From a virus (lineage: Duplodnaviria > Heunggongvirae > Uroviricota > Caudoviricetes): a stretch of DNA of 64,000 nucleotides. Numbering within the stretch: the first letter of the stretch is position 1; each line of letters starts with the position of its first letter. A program made the translations under genes and the position numbers. Location of the stretch: the IMG/VR virus record IMGVR_UViG_2974574300_000001, positions 1 through 64,000 of that record; one strand, written 5' to 3'. This document shows positions 1-38,370 of this stretch, piece after piece. The notes under the pieces were generated by a model, which worked only from the letters and a program-made list of their open reading frames with translations, did no database searches and had not been told where the DNA came from.

Positions 1-118
1 AAATACTTAGAAGATAACTTAAAAGGTTCCTCTAAAAAGGCTATTTAAACAGATATCTTTCTGGATATCTATCTTTTATCTTAAAAGCCTTTTAAGAGGT
101 CTTATAAGAGGTATACCA

Positions 119-490
119 ATGAAAAACAGAACAAACAAAGGCCAGTTTAAAAAAGGCCAGTCTGGAAACCCATCTGGAAGACCAAAAGGCTCTCGTAACA
201 AAAGCTCACTCGTAAAAGCTCAACTGACCATTGATAATTCTGCTGAGTTTGCTGCAAAGTTGTTTGAAGCGATTGTTACAAGGGACGCTGCTAAGCTTGC
301 AGAGTTCGGGTTAAACACAGACGACGTAACCATCAAGAGCATGATTGAGGTCGGTAAAACTATCATGACTCACTCAGCAGGTGAGATGAAAGCCATTGCA
401 GCAGACACTAAGAAGACTCCTGATAACGGTGGTCAGTCTCAGACAGATAGCAAACCAACGTTCTCTGCTGTTGCAACCCTCAAAAAATAA
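119..490 (+). CDS. hypothetical protein with Gly/Lys/Arg-rich N-terminus
   Basis: ORF with AAGAGG RBS upstream of ATG; N-terminal KGQFKKGQSGNPSGRPKGSRNK basic low-complexity segment typical of small phage proteins. Confidence 0.6.
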   Translation: MKNRTNKGQFKKGQSGNPSGRPKGSRNKSSLVKAQLTIDNSAEFAAKLFEAIVTRDAAKLAEFGLNTDDVTIKSMIEVGKTIMTHSAGEMKAIAADTKKTPDNGGQSQTDSKPTFSAVATLKK

Positions 491-572
491 TTTTAAAAGA
501 TGTTGACAGACTCTATAAAGTTACTCTAAAGTCTGTCACATCAACAAACAAAATGAGAGAAGAGAGTAAAAT

Positions 573-1988
573 ATGAGCGAATTATTTAAACATGCGCACC
601 TTCATGCAGGTCGAACTGAAAATGGTGCTGTAAACCATACTTCATCAATGTCTGCTCTTGTAGACTTTTACAAAGCTGCTGGTTCGAGTCGTAGCAATGT
701 AGAAATCTTACCAGACCTGTTCTACAAAGCTTTGCGTGAGGATGTTGATGTTGCAGTTCGTATTTTACTGCATATGCGAGATGTACGAGAAGGTATGGGT
801 GAGCGTAAAGCCTTCAGAACTGTTTTGCTTCAAGCAATTGAAGATAAAGTTTTAGAACCTACACAGGTTCTTCGCATTATGGATAAGATTGCAGAACTTG
901 GTCGTTTTGATGACTTCAAAATCTTCGTAGGTACTCGTTTCGAGACAGATGCCTTCAAACATTTAGAAGCAGCATTACTAGACCCTGCAACAGCAGGTTT
1001 GGCAGCTAAGTGGTTACCACGAGTCAAACCACGTCATAAGCAGTTTGTAAAACGTTTCTGTAAGTTTGCCAACTTGAGTGAGAAAGATTATCGCACACTG
1101 TTGTCTGCGCTCTCTGATACAGTTGAGCAAAAAATCTCTGCTAATGAGTTTGGTAAGATTGACTACAGTAAGATTCCTTCACTTGCTGCTGCACGTTACC
1201 AAAAACTGTTTAACCGCAAAGATGGAGAACGCTACAAAGCTTACATCGAGTCCTTATCAAAGGGTGAGACTAAGATTAATGCTGGTGCTGTTTACCCATA
1301 CGATGTGATTAAGTCTGTTAAGTATGGTAATGCAGATGTTGCTAATGAGCAGTGGAAAGCACTACCAAACTGGATGGCAGAGGGTGAAAACATCTTATGT
1401 ATGACTGATGTTTCAAGCTCAATGTCTTGGGTGAATTTTGGTTCAATCACTGCTCTTGATATTGGCGTATCACTTGCCTTGTATGTAGCAGAACGCAATA
1501 CAGGTTGCTTTAAGGATGAGTTGATGGTTTATTCAACAAACCCTCACTTCATTGAACTGAGTGGTGATTTACGAAACCGTCATCGTCAGGTGATGCGACA
1601 CGTTGAATATGGCTCAACTAACTTACAAGCAGCTTTTGAACGCATTCTTGAGATAGGTAAGAGAAACAACTTGACTCAGAAAGATATGCCAAGTAAGCTT
1701 ATCATCTTCTCCGATATGGAGTTCAATCAGGTTGATGGAGCTAACGGTCGTACAAACTTTGAAGCAATTCAGAGTAAGTACAAGAAAGCTGGATACGAAA
1801 TGCCACAACTGGTATTCTGGTACTTAGCAAACCGTAATGGTACTTGCGAAGTATCTGTTAAGGATAACGGTGTAGCAATGGTATCTGGTTTCTCTCCAGC
1901 CACTTTAAAAGCTCTGCTTGGTGGTGAGAAGTTTGACCCAATCAGCGTAATGCTCAAAGCAGTAATGATTGACCGTTATATCTGGTAA
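573..1988 (+). CDS. vWA-domain protein with MIDAS motif (Ro60/TROVE-like or DUF2828-like candidate)
   Basis: 471 aa ORF; helical N-terminal half then DVSSSM (DxSxS MIDAS) and downstream acidic IIFSDMEF strand typical of von Willebrand A fold. Confidence 0.6.
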   Translation: MSELFKHAHLHAGRTENGAVNHTSSMSALVDFYKAAGSSRSNVEILPDLFYKALREDVDVAVRILLHMRDVREGMGERKAFRTVLLQAIEDKVLEPTQVLRIMDKIAELGRFDDFKIFVGTRFETDAFKHLEAALLDPATAGLAAKWLPRVKPRHKQFVKRFCKFANLSEKDYRTLLSALSDTVEQKISANEFGKIDYSKIPSLAAARYQKLFNRKDGERYKAYIESLSKGETKINAGAVYPYDVIKSVKYGNADVANEQWKALPNWMAEGENILCMTDVSSSMSWVNFGSITALDIGVSLALYVAERNTGCFKDELMVYSTNPHFIELSGDLRNRHRQVMRHVEYGSTNLQAAFERILEIGKRNNLTQKDMPSKLIIFSDMEFNQVDGANGRTNFEAIQSKYKKAGYEMPQLVFWYLANRNGTCEVSVKDNGVAMVSGFSPATLKALLGGEKFDPISVMLKAVMIDRYIW

Positions 1989-2006
1989 AAAGTTTTAAAA
2001 AGGGTA

Positions 2007-2035
2007 TTGACAATGTGTTTGATACCCTTTAATAT
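2007..2035 (+). promoter_or_regulatory. sigma70-like promoter (TTGACA-17-TAATAT) overlapped by GGGTAT/ATACCC inverted repeat
   Basis: TTGACA at 2007-2012, 17 nt spacer, TAATAT at 2030-2035, immediately upstream of tRNA array. Confidence 0.6.
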
Positions 2036-2097
2036 GTTCTACATAGAAACGAAACGAGAGCTTTTCTAAGATACTGAAAAATATTTTAAAAAAGTTC

Positions 2098-2127
2098 TTG
2101 ACAATCACTAAAAAATAATGTTAAAGT
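2098..2127 (+). promoter_or_regulatory. possible sigma70-like promoter (TTGACA-17-TTAAAG)
   Basis: TTGACA at 2098-2103; weaker -10 element. Confidence 0.35.
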
Positions 2128-2153
2128 GGTTACATAGAGTTTGAAAAGTTTAT

Positions 2154-2230
2154 CTCTGTTTAGCTCAGCTTGGTAGAGCGTTCCGTTTGGGGCGGTAAGG
2201 CCGGAGGTTCAAGTCCTCCAACAGAGACCA
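2154..2230 (+). tRNA. tRNA-Pro (anticodon TGG)
   Basis: 7 bp acceptor CTCTGTT/AACAGAG, D-arm GCTC..GAGC, anticodon loop TTTGGGG, T-arm GGAGG-TTCAAGT-CCTCC, encoded CCA. Confidence 0.75.
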
Positions 2231-2237
2231 AATTAAT

Positions 2238-2315
2238 GTTCCAGTAGACAAAATGGTATAGTCACCACTCTTTCAAAGTGGATATTTGAGGGTTCAAATC
2301 CCTTCTGGAACGCCA
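2238..2315 (+). tRNA. tRNA-Glu (anticodon TTC)
   Basis: acceptor GTTCCAG/CTGGAAC, anticodon stem CCACT/AGTGG loop CTTTCAA, T-arm GAGGG-TTCAAAT-CCCTT, CCA. Confidence 0.7.
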
Positions 2316-2406
2316 GTTTTGACAGAAGACCAATTACAGCAAACTTAATCTTATTCATCTGAAGGTAAATCGGACAAAGAAGAGATTTGGTCTGGTCATT
2401 AAGAAT

Positions 2407-2483
2407 TGCGGGTATAGAGAAAGGGCGTCTCACATGTCTCATTAGCATGGTATCGGCAGGTTCGACTCCTGCACCCGCCTCCA
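2407..2483 (+). tRNA. tRNA-Met (anticodon CAT)
   Basis: anticodon stem CATGT/GCATG loop CTCATTA, T-arm GCAGG-TTCGACT-CCTGC, acceptor with 1:72 mismatch, CCA. Confidence 0.6.
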
Positions 2484-2566
2484 AATTTACAGAAGACCGT
2501 TTACAGCAATATTTATTAAATTTTTAGCGGAAAAATTGAAAGATACGGTCTGGTAATACTAAACAT

Positions 2567-2643
2567 GGTTAGGAAGCACATAAGGTATGTGCGGTCGCCT
2601 GTTAAGCGAATGGCACAGGGTTCGAATCCCTGACTAACCGCCA
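2567..2643 (+). tRNA. tRNA-Asn (anticodon GTT)
   Basis: acceptor GGTTAGG/ACTAACC, D-stem GCAC/GTGC, anticodon loop CTGTTAA, T-arm CAGGG-TTCGAAT-CCCTG, CCA. Confidence 0.7.
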
Positions 2644-2712
2644 AATTTAGGAGAGAAGCGATTGCTCACCGATTTGTAAGGTGCAAGTCCTTAGCCTGAA
2701 TAGAAATTAAAT

Positions 2713-2800
2713 GTGTCGTTATCCCGTAGATGGTAGCGGTGGGGACTGTAAATCCCTTGTCATTGAGACTCGGTAGGTTCGACTCCTACACGGCACACCA
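2713..2800 (+). tRNA. tRNA-Tyr (anticodon GTA), long variable arm
   Basis: acceptor GTGTCGT/ACGGCAC, anticodon stem GGGGA/TCCCT loop CTGTAAA, long variable arm, T-arm GTAGG-TTCGACT-CCTAC, CCA. Confidence 0.7.
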
Positions 2801-2805
2801 ATAAA

Positions 2806-2882
2806 GGTTATGTAGTTTAATTTGGTTAAAATACTCCCTGTCACGGGAGATGATGAGGGTTCAAATCCCTTCGTAACCGCCA
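2806..2882 (+). tRNA. tRNA-Asp (anticodon GTC)
   Basis: acceptor GGTTATG/CGTAACC, canonical Asp anticodon loop CTGTCAC (weak stem), T-arm GAGGG-TTCAAAT-CCCTT, CCA. Confidence 0.6.
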
Positions 2883-3310
2883 ATTTTGAGAGGGCTATTT
2901 AGCCCCTCCCTTAAAGAGTTCTTACGAGTATTCTTTAAAGGAGCAGAAGACCAAATTCAGCAAGTTACTTAAAATTTCAAGCCAATTTAATTTTGAAAAA
3001 TTTAAAACTTGGTCTGGCTCAACAAATTTACAGAAGACCATTTACAGCAAAACTTAAACAATCTATTTCTCGGTAAAGAAAAGGAGAAGGTTCGATTCCT
3101 TCACTCGGCAGGTGTCGAGTTGGTGTAATGGTAGCACTTAAGATGATAAACAACGGTCTGGTAATTATCTTTGTAGATAAGTTATTAAGCTTACCTGTGA
3201 GTATGCGACCACAAAGGGTGAAAGGGTAAATTCTAGATTTAAACCCAAAAAGGCACATCGCTACAGACCTTAAGCAAGTCTGGGTAGCTTATCTACAAAG
3301 ATAATTTAAT

Positions 3311-3386
3311 GGAAGTGTAGCAGAATGGTGATGCGGCAGACTTTTAATCTGACAGGCGATGGGTTCGAATCCCTCCACTTCTACCA
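3311..3386 (+). tRNA. tRNA-Lys (anticodon TTT)
   Basis: acceptor GGAAGTG/CACTTCT, anticodon loop CTTTTAA, T-loop TTCGAAT, CCA. Confidence 0.65.
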
Positions 3387-3390
3387 ATAT

Positions 3391-3467
3391 GGTTCAGTCG
3401 CAGATAAGGTAATGCAAGGGTCTCATAAGCCCTATGAATGTGGGTTCGATTCCCATCTGAACCTCCA
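3391..3467 (+). tRNA. tRNA-Met or tRNA-Ile2 (anticodon CAT)
   Basis: acceptor GGTTCAG/CTGAACC, anticodon stem AGGGT/GCCCT loop CTCATAA, T-arm GTGGG-TTCGATT-CCCAT, CCA. Confidence 0.7.
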
Positions 3468-3469
3468 AT

Positions 3470-3544
3470 TGTGGGTTAGCATAAATGGTAATGCAAACGG
3501 CTGATAACCGTTAGAAGAGGGTTCGATACCCTCACCTACAACCA
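3470..3544 (+). tRNA. tRNA-Ile (anticodon GAT)
   Basis: acceptor TGTGGGT/ACCTACA, anticodon stem AACGG/CCGTT loop CTGATAA, T-arm GAGGG-TTCGATA-CCCTC, CCA. Confidence 0.7.
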
Positions 3545-3559
3545 ATTTCAATAAAGTTG

Positions 3560-3588
3560 TTGACATTGAGATGTGACTACTTTATAGT
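3560..3588 (+). promoter_or_regulatory. sigma70-like promoter (TTGACA-17-TATAGT) inside tRNA array
   Basis: TTGACA 3560-3565, 17 nt spacer, TATAGT 3583-3588. Confidence 0.6.
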
Positions 3589-3880
3589 AACTAAAATACT
3601 TCAGAATATGTATAATTCAAACACCAATACATGAGCGTTAGACGTAACACAATGTGGGGAAATTTGTTGTACATATTCTGAATAGTTTTCGTTGCGTAGC
3701 GTCTATTTTGCAAATTTAAAATAAATGCAAACGACAATGTTTTTCTGGCAGTAGCTTGATAGGCTAAACACCAGTGAGGTCTTCCAATCCCTCATCAAAG
3801 AATTTGGCGTACTAGCCACGGTATGATTAATAAGGTGGGCATCTTTAAGGGCTTTCTAAGAGAGTCTTTAAAGATAATTA

Positions 3881-3962
3881 CGGGGCGTATCTCAGCGGTC
3901 TTCTAAACCGCCGTTAACCGAGTAAGTGGAGTATGCGGGTTCGAGTCCTGCCGCCTCGACCA
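3881..3962 (+). tRNA. non-canonical tRNA-like gene (anticodon-like hairpin with TCT, no clear D-arm)
   Basis: acceptor CGGGGCG/CGCCTCG, T-arm GCGGG-TTCGAGT-CCTGC, CCA; only a 5 bp/7 nt hairpin GCGGT-CTTCTAA-ACCGC placed where the D-arm should be, followed by 23 nt extra region. Confidence 0.45.
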
Positions 3963-4104
3963 ATTAGTTAGCAGATTACTTAGACGACCTAAGCGGGTCT
4001 TCCTGTAGGGAGGTGGTCTGTATCTCATGTTTTCCAGAACATGTAAATAATCTGAGAAGGGGCTTTACAGTGTTGAGATAATACGGTAAGCTTCGAATTA
4101 TAGT

Positions 4105-4187
4105 ATGGGACGATGTTAAGACTCTAAGGCATGAGCAACGGCTTCCAACACCGTTTCAAAGGGGTTCAACTCCTCCGTCCCATGCCA
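4105..4187 (+). tRNA. non-canonical tRNA-like gene (aberrant D region; anticodon uncertain, possibly CCA)
   Basis: perfect 7 bp acceptor ATGGGAC/GTCCCAT, T-loop TTCAACT, CCA; 26 nt between acceptor and candidate anticodon hairpin ACGGC-TTCCAAC-ACCGT. Confidence 0.45.
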
Positions 4188-4200
4188 AAGTCTTATTAGG

Positions 4201-4288
4201 GGTAGGTAGCGGCTAATGGTAGCCAAACTGTCTTGAAAACAGTTGCCACTGTAGAGATACGGTGAGGGTTCGACTCCTTTACTTACCG
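4201..4288 (+). tRNA. tRNA-Ser (anticodon TGA), type II
   Basis: acceptor GGTAGGT/ACTTACC, 3 bp D-stem, anticodon stem ACTGT/ACAGT loop CTTGAAA, long variable arm, T-loop TTCGACT; CCA not fully encoded. Confidence 0.7.
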
Positions 4289-4545
4289 CCTAATAAGATT
4301 TAAAGCCAAGCTTCATTCGGATGTTGCTTTGGTATCCCTCGTGTATTGTCGTACACACTGATAAAACACCTAGTAGGTGTCACGGAGAAGAGATAATATC
4401 AAGCTCTCCAAAGGTTCTAGTCACCGGATTAAACAAGACTATGCAAAGACCTTTTTAGGTCTTTTTAGAGGGCTTCTAAGGTTATTACAGCTTGTTGTGG
4501 AACCTTGTTGCTTAGGTTCTTAGAAGTTCTCTAAAAAGATTTAAT

Positions 4546-4623
4546 GGGAGATTGACGGTAATTGGTAAACCTACCTCGCTTAGAACGAGGTGTTTGAGGG
4601 TTCGAATCCCTTGTCTCCTACCA
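4546..4623 (+). tRNA. tRNA with anticodon TAG (Leu by anticodon) but short variable arm
   Basis: acceptor GGGAGAT/GTCTCCT, anticodon stem CCTCG/CGAGG loop CTTAGAA, 5 nt variable loop, T-arm GAGGG-TTCGAAT-CCCTT, CCA. Confidence 0.6.
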
Positions 4624-4630
4624 AATTAAT

Positions 4631-4706
4631 GCAGGTGTAGCAAAATGGTTATGCGGCTGACTCTTAATCAGTAAGACGATGGGTTCAATTCCCTCCACCT
4701 GTACCA
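4631..4706 (+). tRNA. tRNA-Lys (anticodon CTT)
   Basis: acceptor GCAGGTG/CACCTGT, anticodon loop CTCTTAA, T-loop TTCAATT, CCA; paralog of 3311-3386. Confidence 0.6.
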
Positions 4707-4712
4707 AACATT

Positions 4713-4788
4713 GGGGATGTAGTTTACATGGTTAAAACATAAGTTTTGCAAACTTGGGAACTGAGTTCAATTCTCAGTGACTCCACCA
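4713..4788 (+). tRNA. tRNA-Ala (anticodon TGC)
   Basis: G3:U70 in acceptor, anticodon stem TAAGT/ACTTG loop TTTGCAA, T-arm CTGAG-TTCAATT-CTCAG, CCA. Confidence 0.6.
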
Positions 4789-4794
4789 ATTAGT

Positions 4795-4869
4795 GCATCC
4801 ATAGTTTAAACGGGAAAATTACAGTCTTCCAAACTGAGGTTGAGGGTTCGATTCCCTCTGGATGCTCCA
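4795..4869 (+). tRNA. tRNA-Trp (anticodon CCA)
   Basis: acceptor GCATCCA/TGGATGC, anticodon loop CTTCCAA, T-arm GAGGG-TTCGATT-CCCTC, CCA. Confidence 0.7.
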
Positions 4870-4875
4870 AACAAT

Positions 4876-4952
4876 GCTGCTTTCGTATAATTGGCTATTA
4901 CACATCCCTTGTAAGGATGGAAATGCAGGTTCGAGTCCTGTGAGCAGCACCA
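4876..4952 (+). tRNA. tRNA-Thr (anticodon TGT)
   Basis: acceptor GCTGCTT/GAGCAGC, anticodon stem CATCC/GGATG loop CTTGTAA, T-arm GCAGG-TTCGAGT-CCTGT, CCA. Confidence 0.7.
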
Positions 4953-5047
4953 ATTCAGAGGTCAAGTGAAAGACCGCTGGTGTCAACTGAAGACCGTAAC
5001 AAATTCCACGGAGTTGAGTTAGCGGCACAACTTCAGACCTCTTTCAC

Positions 5048-5122
5048 ACTCGCTTAGTTTATATGGTAAAACATCACCCTTACAAGATGAAGAAAAAGGT
5101 TCAAGTCCTTTAGTGAGTACCA
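5048..5122 (+). tRNA. tRNA-Val (anticodon TAC)
   Basis: acceptor ACTCGCT/AGTGAGT, D-stem GTTT/AAAC, anticodon loop CTTACAA, T-arm AAAGG-TTCAAGT-CCTTT, CCA. Confidence 0.65.
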
Positions 5123-5123
5123 T

Positions 5124-5202
5124 GTTCCAGTATCCCAATTGGCAGAGAGGCCAGACTTAAAATCTGTGTTATGTATCGGTTCGAATCCGATATGGAGTAC
5201 CA
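5124..5202 (+). tRNA. tRNA with anticodon TAA (Leu by anticodon), short variable arm
   Basis: acceptor GTTCCAG/ATGGAGT (6 of 7 pairs), anticodon stem CCAGA/TCTGT loop CTTAAAA, T-arm ATCGG-TTCGAAT-CCGAT, CCA. Confidence 0.5.
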
Positions 5203-5207
5203 ATTTT

Positions 5208-5283
5208 AGCGGTATAGCATAACTGGCAATGCAGCAGTCTCTGAAGCTGTCCTATTAAGGTTCAAATCCTTATGCCGCTGCCA
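5208..5283 (+). tRNA. tRNA-Gln (anticodon CTG)
   Basis: acceptor AGCGGTA/TGCCGCT, anticodon loop CTCTGAA, T-arm TAAGG-TTCAAAT-CCTTA, CCA. Confidence 0.6.
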
Positions 5284-5314
5284 CTTCTAAGGGTTCTTAC
5301 GAGAGTCCTTAAAT

Positions 5315-5390
5315 GTGGCCTTATCATAAACGGTAATGACCCATGCTGTGAACATGGTCTATACGGGTTCAAATCCCGTAGGTCACCCCA
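5315..5390 (+). tRNA. tRNA-His (anticodon GTG)
   Basis: acceptor GTGGCCT/AGGTCAC, discriminator C, anticodon stem CCATG/CATGG loop CTGTGAA, T-arm ACGGG-TTCAAAT-CCCGT, CCA. Confidence 0.7.
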
Positions 5391-5396
5391 ATTTAT

Positions 5397-5472
5397 AGTC
5401 CAAGTAGCTTATATGGTTAAAGCGCGTGTCTGAAAAACATGAGAAGAGGGTTCAAATCCCACTGGACTACCA
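5397..5472 (+). tRNA. tRNA-Phe (anticodon GAA)
   Basis: D-stem GCTT/AAGC, anticodon stem CGTGT/ACATG loop CTGAAAA, T-loop TTCAAAT, CCA. Confidence 0.65.
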
Positions 5473-5489
5473 ATTTTCAAAGGTGCTTA

Positions 5490-6224
5490 ATGAAAGAGAT
5501 GACAGGACAAGGTAAGGAGATTTTTAATCTCTTAAAAACCGGTAAAGGGTTTTCTAACCCACTTATTACTGGTGCAGTAGTTCTCGGTGGAACCGTAGCT
5601 GCCTCTACATCACTTGTAAGCTCTATTAGCTCTGTAACAGACCCTACAATGAAGGAGAAGCTTGTTGCTGCTGGACTCACAACAGTCCTTCTAAACAGCT
5701 TTACAACAAGCCTGACAAGCACTACAGCAACTACTAAGACCCTAACAGACTATGGTCAAAAGTCTATTGATGAGTTTTCATCACGTATGCAGGTAGCAAA
5801 GGGGTATTCCAATGTTATGGGTGCAGCAGGAGAACAAGTTGGTTGTACACCATTTAGTGGTATTATGGGTGTTGCTACAGAGTATGGTCAGCAAGCTATT
5901 GACACGATTAACAGCACACTAGACAGTGTTAACGGTGTGTTAAGTGACTTACAAGACGCTATTGATAAGGGTCTTGATACTGTTTCTGATTTAGCTAACC
6001 AAGCTGTTAGCAAGATTAATGAAGGTATCTCAAAGATTACAGCTTATGCAGATGAAGTTGTGCAGATGATTGAAGAAGAAGCTGCCCTTATTGCAGAGTA
6101 CCTTAAAACGAATATCAATGGGTTCTTAGCAGGTATCTTACCAGACTGGTTTGATGATGCTTGGAAAACTGGTGTAATCGACACTATTGCAACACCAGAA
6201 ATGAAGAACGCATTACAGAAATAA
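5490..6224 (+). CDS. hypothetical protein (Ser/Thr-rich N-terminal half)
   Basis: ORF track 5439-6224 trimmed to first ATG after tRNA-Phe; AGGTG RBS. Confidence 0.5.
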   Translation: MKEMTGQGKEIFNLLKTGKGFSNPLITGAVVLGGTVAASTSLVSSISSVTDPTMKEKLVAAGLTTVLLNSFTTSLTSTTATTKTLTDYGQKSIDEFSSRMQVAKGYSNVMGAAGEQVGCTPFSGIMGVATEYGQQAIDTINSTLDSVNGVLSDLQDAIDKGLDTVSDLANQAVSKINEGISKITAYADEVVQMIEEEAALIAEYLKTNINGFLAGILPDWFDDAWKTGVIDTIATPEMKNALQK

Positions 6225-6225
6225 T

Positions 6226-6318
6226 GGAAGATTAACCCTAAAAGGTAAGGGAGCAGTTTGCTAAACTGCCAGTAGCTGAGAAATCGGTGTACCAGTTCAA
6301 GTCTGGTATCTTCCTCCA
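6226..6318 (+). tRNA. tRNA-Ser (anticodon GCT), type II
   Basis: perfect acceptor GGAAGAT/ATCTTCC, 3 bp D-stem CCC/GGG, anticodon stem GCAGT/ACTGC loop TTGCTAA, long variable arm, T-arm ACCAG-TTCAAGT-CTGGT, CCA. Confidence 0.75.
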
Positions 6319-6322
6319 ATCT

Positions 6323-6398
6323 GAATCCGTGACAGAAATGGATATGTGCCTGTCTGCAAAACAGGTTTATAAGGGTTCAAGTCCCTTCGGATTCTCCA
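6323..6398 (+). tRNA. tRNA-Cys (anticodon GCA)
   Basis: acceptor GAATCCG/CGGATTC, anticodon stem CCTGT/ACAGG loop CTGCAAA, T-arm AAGGG-TTCAAGT-CCCTT, CCA. Confidence 0.75.
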
Positions 6399-6435
6399 AG
6401 TTATTTTACTCTCTCTCAATTAAAATAATAATAAT

Positions 6436-6495
6436 GCCCTGCTATAAGTATTCTTCCTTTCGCTACCGAAGAGTATTTTTAGACAGGGCTTTTTT
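6436..6495 (+). terminator. long hairpin followed by T6 (possible terminator after tRNA array)
   Basis: GCCCTG ... CAGGGC closing stem with nested AGTATTCTTC/GAAGAGTATT stem, then TTTTTT. Confidence 0.4.
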
Positions 6496-6560
6496 ACAGA
6501 GTTATACTTTATAGGAAGACTTATACAGTATGTCTCTGACGTACATTGTGGTTTCTCCTT

Positions 6561-6586
6561 GACGGTCTCTGTGCCGTCTTTTTTAA
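6561..6586 (+). terminator. rho-independent terminator
   Basis: GACGG-TCTCTGTG-CCGTC hairpin followed by TTTTTT. Confidence 0.65.
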
Positions 6587-6620
6587 GGGGAAACAAGATT
6601 TATTATTTGGAGAAAACATA

Positions 6621-6821
6621 ATGAGCGAGAACGTTTATAAAGAACTTTATGAAGCTAACAAGAAGTTAGAGTTTATGCAGAATACTATCATGGCAATTGC
6701 AGACAGATTATCTGTAGCAACAGGCATTGATATTAAAGAAGCATCTATGGATGCACTTCTTGATGCTGTTGATGCAAAGTTCGAAGTTAAGAAAGAAGAG
6801 ACTGCGACAGACTCTGAATAA
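6621..6821 (+). CDS. small hypothetical protein upstream of terminase
   Basis: 67 codon ORF with GGAG RBS; position directly before large terminase. Confidence 0.45.
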   Translation: MSENVYKELYEANKKLEFMQNTIMAIADRLSVATGIDIKEASMDALLDAVDAKFEVKKEETATDSE

Positions 6822-6842
6822 TTCTATTTGCGGAGGCGCTTA

Positions 6843-8444
6843 ATGGACTTAAATGCTGTTAAGCAGAAGCGAGTGGAAGATGTTAGGAAAGTCCTAGCTG
6901 GAGAGTTGGGGCTTTCTGATGAAGTAAAAGAAATTATCAAATCATTCGGTAAAGACCCCTCTAAATTCCTTCCAACTCAAATTCTGACTTTATTAAGATA
7001 CACACCAGACCAAGTTCGCCTTATCTTTAAATTGATGACTGATAAGAACTATGTAGCCCCTCAGCCGGGTTCTCAAGAGGTCTTTTTAAACACTAATGCT
7101 GACTTGGTTCTCTATGGTGGTGCTGCTGGTGCTGGTAAGACTGCTGCATTGTTAATGGACTCTTTAAGATTTATTGAAGACCCTAACTATAATGCTGTGT
7201 ATTTCCGTCGAAACACAACACAGTTACAAGGTGGTTTATGGCCTGCTGCAAAGAAACTATTTGGTAAGTTTGGTGGGATTCCTCACGAGCAGAAAATGAC
7301 TATCACATTCCCTTCTGGGGCGACTATCAAGTTTACCTATCTAGAACTTGAAAAGCACGCTGAAGGTCATCAGGGTATTGAATACTCAGCTATTTACTTT
7401 GACGAAGGTACACACTTCTCTGCTTCACAGATTTCATACCTACAAACCCGTCTACGTTCTGGTGCTGAAGGTGATTCATACATGAAGATTTCCATGAACC
7501 CAGACAGAGACCACTTTATTTATGATTGGGTAGAGCCATTCTTAGATGAAGGAGGTTATCCAGACCCTGAAAAGTGTGGTCGTATTCGTTGGTATGTAAT
7601 GAATGATGGTGTGATGGTTTCTGATTGGGAGAGAGACAAGATTCTTGAAATGTTCCCTCTTGAGATTCCTCAAACATACACCTTTATCTCTGGTACGATT
7701 GATGATAACCCAATCCTTGACTTCTTAGAACCAAAGTATCGCGGTAAGCTTGAAAACAACACCCCTGTAAACGTTGCAAGACTTCGTTTCGGTAACTGGA
7801 AGGCTCGTGCAGAAGGTTCAAACTATTGGCAAAGACAATGGTGTGAGATTGTTGATTCACTTCCAGAAGATGTATTCGATGTTAGAGCATGGGACTTAGC
7901 AGCAACTTTACCATCTGAGATTAACCCTAATCCAGACTGGACAGCGGGTGTTAAGATGGGTAAATCTAAAAAAGACGGTTGCTATTATATCATTGATGTA
8001 GTAAGATTTAGAGATAGACCCTCTGGAGTCGAAACACAAATTAATTTGACTGCTGAAAGTGACGGTAAGCGAACTGGTATTTTTATCCCTCAAGACCCAG
8101 GCGCTGCTGGTAAATCCTACGCAACATCCCTCATCAGGAAACTTGCCGAGAAAGGCTATCGTGCAAGAGCTAAACCAACAAATAAAGATAAAGTTACCCG
8201 ATTTGCGGGGTTTTCTTCTGCTTCTGAAGCTGGACTTGTAAAAGTTTTGAGAGGTAGTTGGAATGAAGCTTACTTTCAAGAACTTGAAGGCTTTTGTGGT
8301 GATGGTAAAACTAAAGATGACCAAGTGGATGCTACCAGTGATGCTTTCAACAGTCTTAACGAAGTTAAATTATTCAAGCCACCATCAATGGGTGCTCACA
8401 CAGACTTAGTGAGAGGAAATCCATATGAGGGGCTTAGACGTTGA
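6843..8444 (+). CDS. terminase large subunit
   Basis: Walker A-like VLYGGAAGAGKTAAL near N-terminus, acidic nuclease-type motifs in C-terminal half; GGAGG RBS before ATG 6843. Confidence 0.85.
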   Translation: MDLNAVKQKRVEDVRKVLAGELGLSDEVKEIIKSFGKDPSKFLPTQILTLLRYTPDQVRLIFKLMTDKNYVAPQPGSQEVFLNTNADLVLYGGAAGAGKTAALLMDSLRFIEDPNYNAVYFRRNTTQLQGGLWPAAKKLFGKFGGIPHEQKMTITFPSGATIKFTYLELEKHAEGHQGIEYSAIYFDEGTHFSASQISYLQTRLRSGAEGDSYMKISMNPDRDHFIYDWVEPFLDEGGYPDPEKCGRIRWYVMNDGVMVSDWERDKILEMFPLEIPQTYTFISGTIDDNPILDFLEPKYRGKLENNTPVNVARLRFGNWKARAEGSNYWQRQWCEIVDSLPEDVFDVRAWDLAATLPSEINPNPDWTAGVKMGKSKKDGCYYIIDVVRFRDRPSGVETQINLTAESDGKRTGIFIPQDPGAAGKSYATSLIRKLAEKGYRARAKPTNKDKVTRFAGFSSASEAGLVKVLRGSWNEAYFQELEGFCGDGKTKDDQVDATSDAFNSLNEVKLFKPPSMGAHTDLVRGNPYEGLRR

Positions 8445-8460
8445 TAGCTAGGTGAGAAGA

Positions 8461-9927
8461 ATGGCAGATATTACAGAAACACAAGAAAGCTTACCACCAT
8501 TTAGAATGGGTGAAGTAGGTTCTTTGGGTCTGAAGGTTAAGAATGGAAGAATCTATGAAGAACCTCGTCAGGCACTAAGGTTCCCTGAAAGTATTAAAAC
8601 TTTCCAATTAATGATGCGTGACCCTGCTGTAGCAGCATCTGTAAATATTATTAAGATGTTTGTCAGAAAAGTCAACTGGAGATTCGTACCTCCAAAGGGA
8701 AAAGAGCAAGACCCTAAAATGCTTGAAAGAGCAGACTTCTTTAATTCTTTAATGGATGACATGGAGCATGATTGGGCAGATTTTATTAATTCTGTAATGT
8801 CATTCTGCACTTATGGGTTCTGTGTTAACGAAAAAGTTTATAAGAAGCGTCAGGGTAAGAAAGGGAAGTACCAATCAAAATTTGATGATGGTTTAATCGG
8901 ATGGGCTAAATTGCCAATCAGAAACCAGTCAACGCTTGATAAGTGGTACTTTGACGAAGACTTTAGAAAAGTTACTGGTGTTAGACAGAATCTGAGAAAT
9001 GTTTCACATATTGCTGGAGCAATTAATCTCGGAGAAAGACCACTAACAAGAAAACTTCCACGAGCTAAATTCATGCTGTTTAAGTATGACGATGAATATG
9101 GAAACCCAGAAGGTCGTTCACCATTACTTAATGCTTATGTACCGTGGAAGTATAAAGTTCAGATTGAAGAATATGAAGCTGTTGGTGTTTCAAGAGACTT
9201 GGTGGGTATGCCAAAGATTGGTTTACCACCAGATTATCTGGATGAAAATGCAGAACCTGAAAAGAAAGCTTTCGTACAATACTGCAAAACTGTTGTCAAT
9301 GACATGATTGCTAATGACAGAGCAGGTTTAATCTGGCCTAGATATATTGACCCAGACACTAAAGAGGATATTTTTGAGTTCTCATTAGTCTCTAGACAGG
9401 GTGCTAAAGCATACGATACAGGTTCTATTATTGATAGATATTCCAAGCAGATTATGATGGCATTTATGTCAGATGTTCTTGCTATGGGTCAGTCAAAATA
9501 CGGTTCATTCTCTCTTGCAGATTCTAAGACAAGCTTACTAGCGATGTCGGTAGATATTCTGCTGAAGCAAATTAAGAACGTAATTAACCGTGATTTAGTT
9601 GCACAGACTTATGCTCTTAATATGTGGGATGATGAAGAACATGTACAAATCACATATGATGATATCGAAACTCCAGACCTTGAAGCAATTGGTTCTTATA
9701 TTCAGAAGACTGTTGCAGTAGGTGCTTTGGAAGTTGACAAAGAGCTATCTAACAAGCTTAGAGAGCATATTGGTCTTCCTCCTGCTGATGAGTCTCAGCC
9801 AGTATCTGAAAAGCTTTCTCCAAATAGCCAAAGCCGTTCAGGAGATGGCTATAAGACTGCTGGAGAAGGTACTGCAAAGACACCTTCAGCGAAAGACCCA
9901 AGCACAGCAAATAAGGCAAATAAATAA
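8461..9927 (+). CDS. portal protein (putative)
   Basis: about 490 aa ORF immediately after large terminase, acidic/Ser-rich C-terminus; assignment by gene order. Confidence 0.55.
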   Translation: MADITETQESLPPFRMGEVGSLGLKVKNGRIYEEPRQALRFPESIKTFQLMMRDPAVAASVNIIKMFVRKVNWRFVPPKGKEQDPKMLERADFFNSLMDDMEHDWADFINSVMSFCTYGFCVNEKVYKKRQGKKGKYQSKFDDGLIGWAKLPIRNQSTLDKWYFDEDFRKVTGVRQNLRNVSHIAGAINLGERPLTRKLPRAKFMLFKYDDEYGNPEGRSPLLNAYVPWKYKVQIEEYEAVGVSRDLVGMPKIGLPPDYLDENAEPEKKAFVQYCKTVVNDMIANDRAGLIWPRYIDPDTKEDIFEFSLVSRQGAKAYDTGSIIDRYSKQIMMAFMSDVLAMGQSKYGSFSLADSKTSLLAMSVDILLKQIKNVINRDLVAQTYALNMWDDEEHVQITYDDIETPDLEAIGSYIQKTVAVGALEVDKELSNKLREHIGLPPADESQPVSEKLSPNSQSRSGDGYKTAGEGTAKTPSAKDPSTANKANK

Positions 9928-37016: not shown

Positions 37017-37567
37017 TGTACCTCATACCAGCTCTTACCAACTTTACCAGTACCAGTTACAAGCGTTTCCTCCTTAAGACCTAAGTTTCTTGATGCCTGA
37101 CCATACATCCAGTCAATTACTGCTTTAACATCCTGTGTCATCTCTTCTGGGCACTCCCAACTATTCTCGTCGTGGTATGCTAAAAGCAATCTAGCACCAA
37201 TAGCTGGTTTTCGACCATTCAGCTTTGTAAGACCCTCTTCACAAGCCCTTCTACAAGCAAGGTTGATAGCTTCATTCTGAACCTGACTTTCCGAACCCAT
37301 GAGCAAGTAATTTAAAAGTTTGTGCGGAGATTTACACCACAACCATGCACCTGCTACCTTTACAAAACCACCCTTAGAGATTGCAGCAGTCTTACCAAAC
37401 ACCTCTTCAAGAGCCTTCTTAGTGGCTTTGAAGTCTGCTTCCAAATTATCTATCAACTTTTTAATCTTAGGAAGGCGTACAAAGTAAGTTTGCTTAGTTA
37501 AAGCACCCTCTTCAGTAGTTGCAGCTTTAATCGTCTTAGCAAACTTCTCGTCACCTGCCCCAAACAA
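37013..37567 (-). CDS. DNA polymerase (family A, T7-like), 3' exon
   Basis: begins with FGAGDEK continuing motif B; contains motif C LLAYHDE. Confidence 0.8.
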   Translation of the reverse strand: MFGAGDEKFAKTIKAATTEEGALTKQTYFVRLPKIKKLIDNLEADFKATKKALEEVFGKTAAISKGGFVKVAGAWLWCKSPHKLLNYLLMGSESQVQNEAINLACRRACEEGLTKLNGRKPAIGARLLLAYHDENSWECPEEMTQDVKAVIDWMYGQASRNLGLKEETLVTGTGKVGKSWYEVH

Positions 37568-37569
37568 TA

Positions 37570-38370
37570 CATCTGGTCAATACACTCGCAAGGTGTACCA
37601 GTTCTCTTATGAACTTCTCCGCATTTCTACGGAGTGTCGGACTATATCACGTAGCAGTGCTGCTACCGTTGCGCTTGGGATGGTCATTAGCTTACCACCC
37701 TACTCTACTCAGTTCATACGTTAAGTATGCTTTTCGATAGTCTCTGAACGTTTCTCTGTTAGGAATCTCTATAATCATGTTATTTACTCAGGTAGTCAAT
37801 TGCCCTTTGCATATTATCAACGCTATCTGCAAGCAACCCCAAAGCTCTATTGCAATTGTGGCACAACATACCTCTTACTTTTCCGGTTTTGTGGTCATGG
37901 TCAACGACAAGTTTAGCCTTATGCCGTGAGCTATTCATGATAAAACCTTCACCGCCACAAATTTGACATTTGTAATCACAGTTACGAAGTAGGGTTTCAA
38001 CCTCTTCTCTTTCTAAACCATATGTTCTCAGGTAGTAATTCTTAACTCTACCTTTCTCTCCGCAATGCGAAGAACAATAAACTTGCCTTGCTGTTCTAGG
38101 CATGAACACCTTCTCACAGCTAGGACATTTCTTAGTAAGAACCCTATGTTCTGCTCTTCTGTCAAATTTTAATACGCAACTTCTGCACCGTTTTTGATTG
38201 TATTGGTATGGTTTAAACTCTGCACCACACTCAGTACACAATCTCTCTTTGTAACCTGCCATTGTCTCTCTCCTTTGTTTTAGGAGTCCTAACAGAGACT
38301 TCGCTGCTGATTACCATGTCTTTACAGACTTAGGCTTCCAGCAATTCACAACGTTTTACATGCGCCACTG
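37570..38370 (-). mobile_element. group I intron (putative) in DNA polymerase gene
   Basis: about 800 nt separating polymerase motif B halves (IYA.. | ..FGAGDEK); boundaries compatible with exon ending in U and intron ending in G; carries HNH ORF. Confidence 0.6.
37780..38262 (-). CDS. intron-encoded HNH endonuclease (endonuclease VII-like with zinc ribbon)
   Basis: DHDHKTGKVRGMLCHNCNRALG HNH/EndoVII signature plus CxxC pairs. Confidence 0.75.
   Translation of the reverse strand: MAGYKERLCTECGAEFKPYQYNQKRCRSCVLKFDRRAEHRVLTKKCPSCEKVFMPRTARQVYCSSHCGEKGRVKNYYLRTYGLEREEVETLLRNCDYKCQICGGEGFIMNSSRHKAKLVVDHDHKTGKVRGMLCHNCNRALGLLADSVDNMQRAIDYLSK

Follow-up and report, generated by a model that had tools for sequence, protein, structure and literature searches.

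Which RNA would be the partner of a phage protein built like Ro60, when its gene lies directly before an array of tRNA genes? This question is raised by a 64,000-nucleotide stretch of caudoviricete DNA (positions 1 to 64,000 of the IMG/VR record IMGVR_UViG_2974574300_000001; hereafter the window), in which an open reading frame (ORF) for a protein of 471 amino acids (aa) occupies positions 573-1988 of the + strand, with an ATG start. The original prediction, made from the sequence alone, proposed that this ORF encodes a possible Ro60-like RNA-binding protein. In this study, the ORF was assigned to a widespread family of Ro60-like proteins, and four small RNA elements of a conserved type (E1-E4) were identified downstream of it. 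We consider it reasonably probable that the 471-aa protein is the protein half, and E1-E4 the RNA half, of a phage-encoded ribonucleoprotein (RNP) of the Ro60/Y-RNA type. The Ro60-like, anti-Ppl reading of the protein is already known; within the literature searched, the partner RNA family and its proposed identity with the Class I RNAs of social amoebae appear to be new.

The Ro60-like protein and its family

The window belongs to Felixounavirus, its first 9 kb sharing 99.7% identity with Salmonella phage FM4b and 97-98% with Felix O1. In records of the FM4b/Felix O1 type the 471-aa gene carries the name 'RNA-binding protein', 'vWFA protein' or 'hypothetical protein'. The ORF is no chance reading frame: more than 2,500 homologs exist, and PHROG 850 ('RNA-binding protein') is matched over residues 1-471 (E = 3e-183). 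A sigma70-like promoter (TTGACA-18-TAAAGT; positions 503-532, + strand, 41 nt 5' of the ORF; 10/12 matches in a consensus scan) is, as judged from its sequence, the probable promoter of the gene.

The ORF encodes a Ro60-like protein of the DUF2828/DUF7788 lineage, in which a ring of HEAT-like helical repeats is closed by a von Willebrand factor A (vWA) domain with a metal ion-dependent adhesion site (MIDAS). The AlphaFold2 model (predicted local distance difference test, pLDDT, 89; predicted template modelling score, pTM, 0.88) is all-helical to about residue 265 and then adopts an alpha/beta vWA fold, in agreement with the helical N-terminal half and C-terminal vWA domain expected earlier. 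Structural comparison likewise recovered the suggested Ro60/Rsr-type architecture: the matches include PDB 2i91 and 9nep, and phiRo60 of phage phiLo (PDB 9KOP, 9L5Y) is among the top ones. The sequence DVSSSM (residues 279-284; codons at positions 1407-1424, + strand) had been read as a MIDAS motif, of which it forms the DxSxS part, and this reading holds: the MIDAS is complete, with D279, S281, S283, T349 and D381 in invariant columns of an alignment of 46 homologs reaching down to 40% identity. The basic ring residues R40, R69, R72, R78, R111 and K146 are also invariant in the homolog alignment. In Pfam, DUF7788 (147.5 bits) and DUF2828 (102 bits) were matched, each over its curated cut-off.

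The gene family was found in 708 of 50,697 phage records, with hosts from at least six phyla, including Escherichia, Salmonella, Vibrio, Aeromonas, Campylobacter, Listeria, Staphylococcus, Enterococcus, Bacillus, Mycobacterium, Fusobacterium and Synechococcus; in mycobacteriophages its members are already annotated as 'Ro-like RNA binding protein'. The ortholog in phage Bas63 (JohannRWettstein), gp130 (bas63_0130), is identical to the window protein in 458 of 471 residues (97%), with equal length and the same flanking genes, and is located before tRNA-Pro as in the window. In the PhageMaP preprint, gp130 was found to be structurally similar to Ro60, its deletion made Bas63 sensitive to the Ppl defence, and gp130 alone, supplied from a plasmid or inserted in T7, rescued T7 on Ppl (PMC11482910). 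By orthology, the window protein itself would have an anti-Ppl role. Since this preprint deals with a 97%-identical protein, the idea of a Ro60-like protein, which our results support, was right but already published. In the literature searched, the mechanism of Ppl is described only as a proposal of the PhageMaP authors. The Discussion of PMC11482910 states that gp130 helps T7 against 'hhe', whereas its Results and figures refer to Ppl, so that 'hhe' is presumably a slip of wording.

The PhageMaP authors also speculated that some of the 'tRNAs' downstream of gp130 may be Y RNAs (PMC11482910). Their preprint names no specific RNA, whereas here four candidate elements, also present in Bas63 (locus L002 of our set, positions 37068-37875), are given and assigned to a family that spans many phage groups.

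Four RNA elements downstream of the gene

The window was searched with a covariance model of the element (R1), built from 18 short forms; the seed was cut to this number because MAFFT misaligned the 3' arms where loop lengths differ. With filters off, the only credible matches in positions 1-9000 were E1-E4, and nothing else was found in the 64 kb. All four are on the + strand, 340-1,170 nt 3' of the 471-aa gene, i.e. in a variant form of the proximity seen for Y RNA genes, and all have the layout AAG...CUGG, with the motif UUACAGCAA three times and UUCAGCAA once.

E1 (positions 2326-2395, + strand; R1 42.9 bits) and E2 (2493-2553, + strand; R1 51.7 bits) are short RNAs of the type of the Dictyostelium Class I RNAs (see below), and the Rfam model RF01414 aligns to them end to end with 19.7 and 20.1 bits, respectively. 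E1 consists of AAG, the 5' arm AGACCAA, UU, ACAGCAA (2336-2342), a loop, the 3' arm UUGGUCU (2387-2393) and GG, and it occupies the slot from tRNA-Glu to a tRNA-Met-like gene. E2 consists of AAG, AGACCGU, UU, ACAGCAA (2503-2509), a loop, ACGGUCU (2545-2551) and GG, with the closing stem present in the minimum free energy (MFE) fold. Both sit in tRNA-sized slots, 6-10 nt from the adjoining tRNAs. E3 (2947-3017, + strand) is a short form with the variant UCAGCAA (2957-2963) and the stem AGACCAA/UUGGUCU, supported by R1 (23.9 bits, E = 6e-4 in 9 kb) and by its fold.

E4 (3034-3161, + strand; R1 22.0 bits) is a long, YrlA-like form. Its 5' part comprises the 5' arm AGACCAUU, ACAGCAA (3044-3050) and a T-arm, GAAGG-UUCGAUU-CCUUC (3086-3102); these are followed by a closed 7-bp hairpin (3103-3120), the D-arm-like GGUGUAAUGGUAGCACU (3122-3138), the 3' arm AACGGUCU (3152-3159) and GG. 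In the window one A.C mismatch interrupts the closing stem, which is perfect in other Felix-like phages. By inspection, MFE fold and pattern scan, the apparent order of T-arm, closed acceptor-like hairpin and D-arm within a long-range stem resembles that of YrlA. A covariance model of the permuted module (R3), built without Felix-like sequences, gave 36.4 bits for E4 (42.4 in Bas63) in a stretch without a tRNA call; because junctions of tandem tRNAs also reach 38 bits with R3, as high as E4, this test is only supportive. The R3 score and a simple regular-expression scan were both tried as separators of modules from tandem-tRNA junctions and rejected, the former giving no separation and the latter being noisy.

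Some annotations overlap such elements. Small hypothetical ORFs are annotated over RNA elements in FM4b (CDS_0048, minus strand, window positions 2233-2448) and in locus L089 (4471-4560), and in Aeromonas phage LAh_6 (L094 2875-3000) the Ro60-like gene as annotated runs over two elements at its start, the true start being probably near 3001.

Conservation of the element and its linkage to the gene

In 79 non-redundant loci scanned for ACAGCAA with a closing stem of at least 7 bp, 51 elements were found on the strand of the gene and no farther than 700 nt from it, a density of 0.47 per kb; the opposite strand had 4 and shuffled sequences gave 1.75, and the density elsewhere was 0.04 per kb. The elements share the consensus (U)AA-AG-stem-NU-ACAGCAA...stem-CUG-A. 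When 1.4 Mb were searched with R1 on both strands (E ≤ 1), all 83 matches were on the gene's strand, 62 of them within 700 nt of the gene; among the 21 more distant ones, 19 lie within about 90 nt of a tRNA. A second sample, of eight annotated phages picked for host diversity only, gave 22 matches at seven of the eight loci, again all on the gene's strand. About 25 R1 matches are located in the 5' leader region of the gene. In the second sample, Aeromonas phage LAh_6 has eight tandem copies, the phages of Staphylococcus, Klebsiella and Bacillus have three each, those of Enterococcus and Synechococcus two each and the Fusobacterium phage one. In the 54 best matches, CAGCAA is invariant and U occurs at the two preceding positions in 59-83%; the 5' G (53/54), its pairing C (53/54) and the 3' G (54/54), none of which was a search criterion, are nearly or fully conserved. 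R1 had no match in the 41-kb locus of Bxz1, which encodes a canonical phage Ro60, and found nothing above 13.3 bits in the tRNA region of T5 (25 tRNAs and several stable RNAs).

At least 10 further loci contain long forms comparable to E4. In Enterococcus phage PEF1 and Klebsiella phage KP13-16, R3 modules next to the gene reach 56-60 bits (L090 2449-2513 and 2626-2693; L093 4722-4793), and in Synechococcus phage B23 (L096 4848-4957) a 110-nt 'tRNA-Undet' follows an element, 393 nt 3' of the gene. The Rfam YrlA model, which as a positive control detected the Y RNA 5' of Bxz1 gp220 (32.5 bits), gave a match 141 nt 3' of the DUF2828-type gene of mycobacteriophage Lolly9 (37.7 bits). Three tandem units occur in the spacer there, each closed by GUGGAC...GUCCAG; ACAGCAA adjoins the 5' arm, and the middle unit encloses the YrlA module. 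The spacers on both sides of the window tRNA-Met, which read CAGAAGACCNNUUACAGCAA...NNGGUCUGG, have the same layout as these Lolly9 units.

The window gene itself lies immediately 5' of a tRNA array, as stated in the original prediction: 165 nt separate it from the first of 22 tRNA genes called by ARAGORN (positions 2154-6398, + strand, with E1-E4 embedded). Could tRNAs be the ligands? Both that prediction and the PhageMaP authors pointed to RNAs of the array, and the protein might be a chaperone or quality-control ring for phage tRNAs or for damaged or misfolded ones. Misfolded RNAs are threaded by their 3' ends through the ring of Ro60 (PDB 2i91 and 9nep are among the structural matches), and the aberrant tRNA-like genes noticed earlier are indeed present, at 2806-2882 (8-nt anticodon loop) and 2407-2483 (called by ARAGORN only). 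Among distant homologs (75 IMG/VR loci, 39-47% identity), every tRNA is on the gene's strand, and the nearest downstream tRNA is less than 1 kb away in 16 of 72 loci and 1-2 kb away in none; adjacency to tRNAs is seen in 8 of 15 protein clusters (60% identity). The order varies, from 20 tRNAs and then the gene in Bacillus phage Nate to the gene and then 13 tRNAs in Klebsiella phage KP13-16. tRNAs also adjoin the gene in Campylobacter phage Los1, Enterococcus phage PEF1 and Synechococcus phage B23, and there are no adjacent tRNAs in Vibrio phage ValKK3, Fusobacterium phage phiKSUM and an Erwinia jumbo phage. At 40 of the 75 loci the flank examined holds no tRNA at all, and it is the ACAGCAA element, not tRNAs, that follows the gene. 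We therefore regard tRNAs as very improbable ligands, although this proposal would be compatible with an RNP if Y-like RNAs gate the access of tRNAs to the ring.

Because 23 of these 40 flanks without tRNAs have an element beside the gene, the linkage of element and gene is independent of tRNAs. This bears on a second alternative, in which the vWA/MIDAS face of the protein binds an acidic residue of a host protein (e.g. Ppl) and blocks it, the RNA elements being mere passengers of the array. Such a contact leaves unexplained why a strand-matched element accompanies the gene in phages with hosts of six phyla, also at tRNA-less loci, and why the whole Ro60 ring is conserved together with its invariant basic residues. 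It seems unlikely, and it is compatible with an RNP, since a ring and a MIDAS motif also occur together in Ro60.

In Listeria phage WIL-1 (L087, NC_025440) a ROOL RNA (RF03087, 87 bits, E = 3e-16; positions 2429-2980) was found inside the tRNA array, directly 5' of three Class-I-type elements and the Ro60-like gene (see also 3618-3889 and 6808-8019); RtcB ('tRNA splicing ligase'), an HD protein and a NADAR protein are encoded downstream. In the literature searched, no paper joins ROOL or GOLLD to Ro60.

Similarity to the Class I RNAs of Dictyostelium

To our knowledge, the function of Class I RNAs has been unknown since 2004, and the class was thought to be unique to social amoebae. Class I RNAs are 42-65 nt long and have a short, covarying stem joining their ends, a fully conserved 5' G, an 11-nt motif (CCUUACAGCAA) adjoining the 5' arm and the termini AAG and CUGU (Kjellin et al. 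2021, PMC7919456). In the files of these authors the motif is given as CCTTACAGCAA, as in DdR-21 (GUUGAC-CUUACAGCAA-...-GUCAAC-UG). In Dictyostelium the RNAs are abundant, stand-alone and stable, and after a search of other eukaryotes and Myxococcus the class was described as unique to dictyostelids (PMC7919456). The phage elements share every feature of this published definition: a length of about 42-65 nt, the end-joining stem, the 11-nt motif, the conserved termini and the 5' G.

In a lax Rfam scan of the eight copies of phage LAh_6 (L094), the only family returned was RF01414, matched seven times with 19-30 bits; neither these copies nor E1 and E2 reach its gathering score of 41.5 bits. 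A covariance model built from 20 amoeba sequences only, from six species (R2), was used to search 1.49 Mb of phage loci (E ≤ 1). All 27 matches are on the gene's strand and 26 of them coincide with elements defined from the phages, while R2 had no match in T5 and Bxz1. The loops of two curated amoeba members, asu_can_20 and ppa_can_99, carry T-arm-like modules (CCUAGGUUCGAUCCCUAG with a hairpin after it, and UUGGUUCGAAUCCGA, respectively; supplement of PMC7919456), which are reminiscent of the long forms of phages.

The two groups also differ. The phage elements form operon-like arrays 3' of sigma70-type promoters, 6-10 nt from tRNAs, whereas Class I RNA genes stand alone with a Dictyostelium upstream sequence element (DUSE) promoter about 60 nt upstream, an arrangement that the phage elements lack; phage stems are often 7-9 bp and the loops longer. 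On the protein side, a pull-down with DdR-21 recovered GuaB, NdkC, the RNA recognition motif (RRM) protein CIBP/Rnp1A, and DDB_G0281243 of unknown function, and Rnp1A/CIBP is the only direct Class I binder shown in amoeba. DUF2828 proteins occur in plants, and they have also been reported as mimivirus-like (10.1101/033464). The Class-I-type motif was found on three contigs of giant-virus metagenome-assembled genomes (L111, L122 and L156); the L122 copy belongs to an array of 4 tRNAs, one of them 9 nt away. Divergent homologs at loci L166 and L169 gave a weak Pfam match to DUF2828 and form no bridge to the eukaryotic members. In the literature searched, no paper connects phages with Class I RNAs or any RNA with DUF2828.

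A possible, still doubtful reading is that the phage elements and the dictyostelid Class I RNAs constitute one class, whose partner is a DUF2828-type Ro60-like protein, the amoeba binder being possibly DDB_G0281243. What speaks for it is the common definition of the RNAs and the linkage of RNA and gene in phages, evidence that leaves the amoeba protein untouched. The resemblance may reflect common descent, horizontal transfer or convergence on a shared protein partner.

Points against the proposed ribonucleoprotein, and the reverse scan

Several observations weigh against an RNP of the protein and E1-E4. Among the profiles to which the original prediction had pointed (TROVE, DUF2828 and vWA), DUF2828 was recovered, together with DUF7788, and TROVE was not: TROVE and vWA_Ro60 (PF05731 + PF25045) are unmatched by the window protein at Pfam E ≤ 1, whereas the control, Bxz1 gp220, matches both (E = 9e-50 and 4e-54, respectively). 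Less clear-cut is an hhalign comparison, in which TROVE was aligned with a probability of 85% (E = 6e-6; both alignments shallow) to residues 238-443 only, i.e. the last ring helix and the vWA domain, with the N-terminal ring unaligned. A search of NCBIfam with the window protein returned no family, a PDB sequence search with this single protein returned no match, and in a PDB profile search the only TROVE match was marginal, at the motif DVSGSM (E = 2.3). On the RNA side, the Rfam YrlA model (RF02553) had no match in window positions 1-9000, 2880-4560 or 2300-3200, and the R3 score of E4 is equalled by tandem-tRNA junctions, as said above. The short form is absent from 24 of the 75 homolog loci, its presence being a lower bound. 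In the R1 alignment 97.6% of cells are paired and compensatory changes occur in 6 of 7 pairs, a count that is partly circular because the stem was a search criterion; independent support comes from the strand and position bias, with 105/105 matches on the gene's strand, and from the near-invariant 5' G, its pairing C and the 3' G. Finally, because gp130 alone rescued T7, which has no such RNAs, the phage RNAs are dispensable for anti-Ppl activity; RNAs of the E1-E4 type may regulate or retarget the protein instead of being needed against Ppl.

The association is also weaker in the reverse direction. IMG/VR was scanned by motif only (AAGGNNNCTTACAGCAA, 15-45 nt, CCTG), which gave 97 stretches, 80 of them taken as loci; the hidden Markov model (HMM) of the family finds the gene in 24 of the 80 and the TROVE HMM finds nothing in them. 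Among 34 elements with a perfect 6-bp stem, 9 were accompanied by the gene (tblastn), all on the same strand and 8 at 71-867 nt. The other 25 well-formed elements have no homolog in the stretch examined, which is not the whole genome, and for 19 of them a tRNA on the same strand is at most about 300 nt away, as part of an array of 4-28 tRNAs. Two settings of the element can thus be told apart, one next to the gene and one within tRNA arrays, and the window shows both. The element might serve tRNA arrays rather than the protein.

It is at this point that a third alternative has to be weighed: the hairpins AAG-stem-UUACAGCAA-stem-CUG could be cis-acting signals of tRNA or early transcripts (for processing, as a stabiliser or as an attenuator, with a host factor), the gene merely sharing the neighbourhood. 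The gene-less elements near tRNAs fit this, as do the tRNA-like slots of the window elements at a few nucleotides from tRNAs, and the matches in the 5' leader of the gene would fit it too, or an autoregulatory operator. On the other hand, the T5 array with its 25 tRNAs has no elements, tRNA-less loci have the element beside the gene, and up to eight tandem copies occur; no U-tract follows the stem, the long forms contain a Y-RNA-type module, and the Dictyostelium RNAs of the same definition are, as described above, abundant, stable and stand-alone (PMC7919456). We regard a purely cis-acting role as quite improbable. An RNP of protein and element accounts better than any of the three alternatives for a linkage to the gene that is strand-matched and independent of tRNAs.

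Proposed mode of action

For the binding of the RNAs, their processing, the second factor and the countering of Ppl we infer the following scheme. The spacer between the gene and the array (positions 1999-2127, + strand) contains a 12-bp hairpin (1999-2030) and two near-consensus sigma70-like promoters (2007-2035 and 2098-2127). With two such promoters in the 165-nt spacer, the array probably has its own transcription start, and by their sequence the two promoters probably drive the tRNA and small-RNA array. E1-E4 would probably be transcribed from them (2007-2127) and then excised by tRNA-processing enzymes. Each RNA has a covarying end-joining stem, flanked by AAG and CUG, with the invariant (U)UACAGCAA beside the 5' arm. 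We propose this closing stem with UUACAGCAA as the protein-binding site, in analogy to the stem by which Y RNAs are bound to Ro60. The variable loop would attract or block another factor, e.g. an exoribonuclease, a tRNA enzyme or RtcB; in E4 this loop holds an apparent permuted tRNA-like module of the YrlA kind.

Acting on RNA in the infected cell, the RNP would have as one outcome the escape from Ppl that was reported for the 97%-identical Bas63 gp130. Since known Ro60 systems tether or inhibit exoribonucleases via Y RNA, an action on host enzymes of RNA decay or repair appears to be the most likely mechanism. Bacterial Rsr with Y RNA works with PNPase, and host PNPase is slowed by phiRo60 together with its Yrl RNAs (PMC4201824, PMC12135203). 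Such an action would also agree with RtcB as a neighbour of the gene in Listeria phage WIL-1.

Other features of the tRNA array

The aberrant tRNA-Met-like gene between E1 and E2 (positions 2407-2483, + strand) is called by ARAGORN, is unreported by the Rfam tRNA model at E ≤ 1, and is unannotated in FM4b and annotated in Bas63. As a Y RNA it was set aside, because it folds into an ordinary cloverleaf and is located between two elements. The tRNA at 2806-2882, with its 8-nt anticodon loop, is given the anticodon 'gtca' by ARAGORN and carries a tRNA-Asp annotation in related phages. Altered anticodon loops of phage tRNAs have been proposed as a means to evade anticodon nucleases.

A gap of 656 nt in the array (3545-4200) has no + strand ORF and contains weak tmRNA-like Rfam matches (3691-3962) as well as the best sigma70 promoter match of the region (3560-3588; 11/12). 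Bas63 carries a tRNA-Arg at this position, and the gap may represent a decayed tRNA or another non-coding transcript. Directly 5' of tRNA-Leu lies a hairpin of about 100 nt (4451-4550) with a spurious match to a miRNA precursor (32.7 bits). The weak matches to tmRNA, permuted-tmRNA and miRNA families in the array gaps (3487-3962 and 4451-4550) were judged to be chance or generic hairpins. A mini hairpin, AGAC-CUUAAGCAA-GUCU-GG, 5' of tRNA-Lys (about 3266-3284) resembles a truncated copy of the element with one base deleted. Inside the array there is also an ORF of 261 aa (5439-6224), whose start overlaps the 3' end of tRNA-Phe and which is annotated as hypothetical in FM4b and Bas63.

Relation to known systems and significance

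With the Ro60/Rsr systems and their Y RNAs (YrlA and YrlB; Ro60 of animals) the window locus shares the HEAT-repeat ring with vWA/MIDAS, small RNA genes within about 1 kb on the same strand, a long form whose layout resembles YrlA, the coexistence of short YrlB-like and long YrlA-like forms and, in one phage, RtcB as a neighbour. It differs from them in that the protein belongs to DUF2828/DUF7788 rather than TROVE/vWA_Ro60 and is about 60-80 residues shorter, and in the closing-stem signature of the RNAs, AAG...UUACAGCAA...CUG. Thermus phage phiLo likewise encodes a Ro60 fold with two adjacent small RNAs, Yrl1 and Yrl2 (PMC12135203). phiRo60 binds both, and the complexes with host PNPase slow RNA decay (PMC12135203; PDB 9KOP, 9L5Y). 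However, phiRo60 is a canonical TROVE protein, and its RNAs, which were defined by a CGAA motif and differ from the ACAGCAA type, lie upstream. The stable RNAs of the T5 tRNA cluster, ROOL and GOLLD are similar in being non-tRNA RNAs of unknown function in phage tRNA arrays; the T5 RNAs fail the element model, and ROOL and GOLLD are ornate RNAs of about 600 nt without the shared motif.

A Ro60 ring without its RNA is not understandable mechanistically, and concrete RNA candidates, with coordinates and a consensus, are now supplied for this family. If the amoeba RNAs do belong to the same class, Class I RNAs would be the 'Y RNAs' of a second Ro60-like lineage, common to phages, giant viruses and eukaryotes. 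If binding is confirmed, the phage protein and its elements would constitute a second, widespread Ro60/Y-RNA system, and parts of phage tRNA arrays that are now unannotated or mis-annotated would gain a role.

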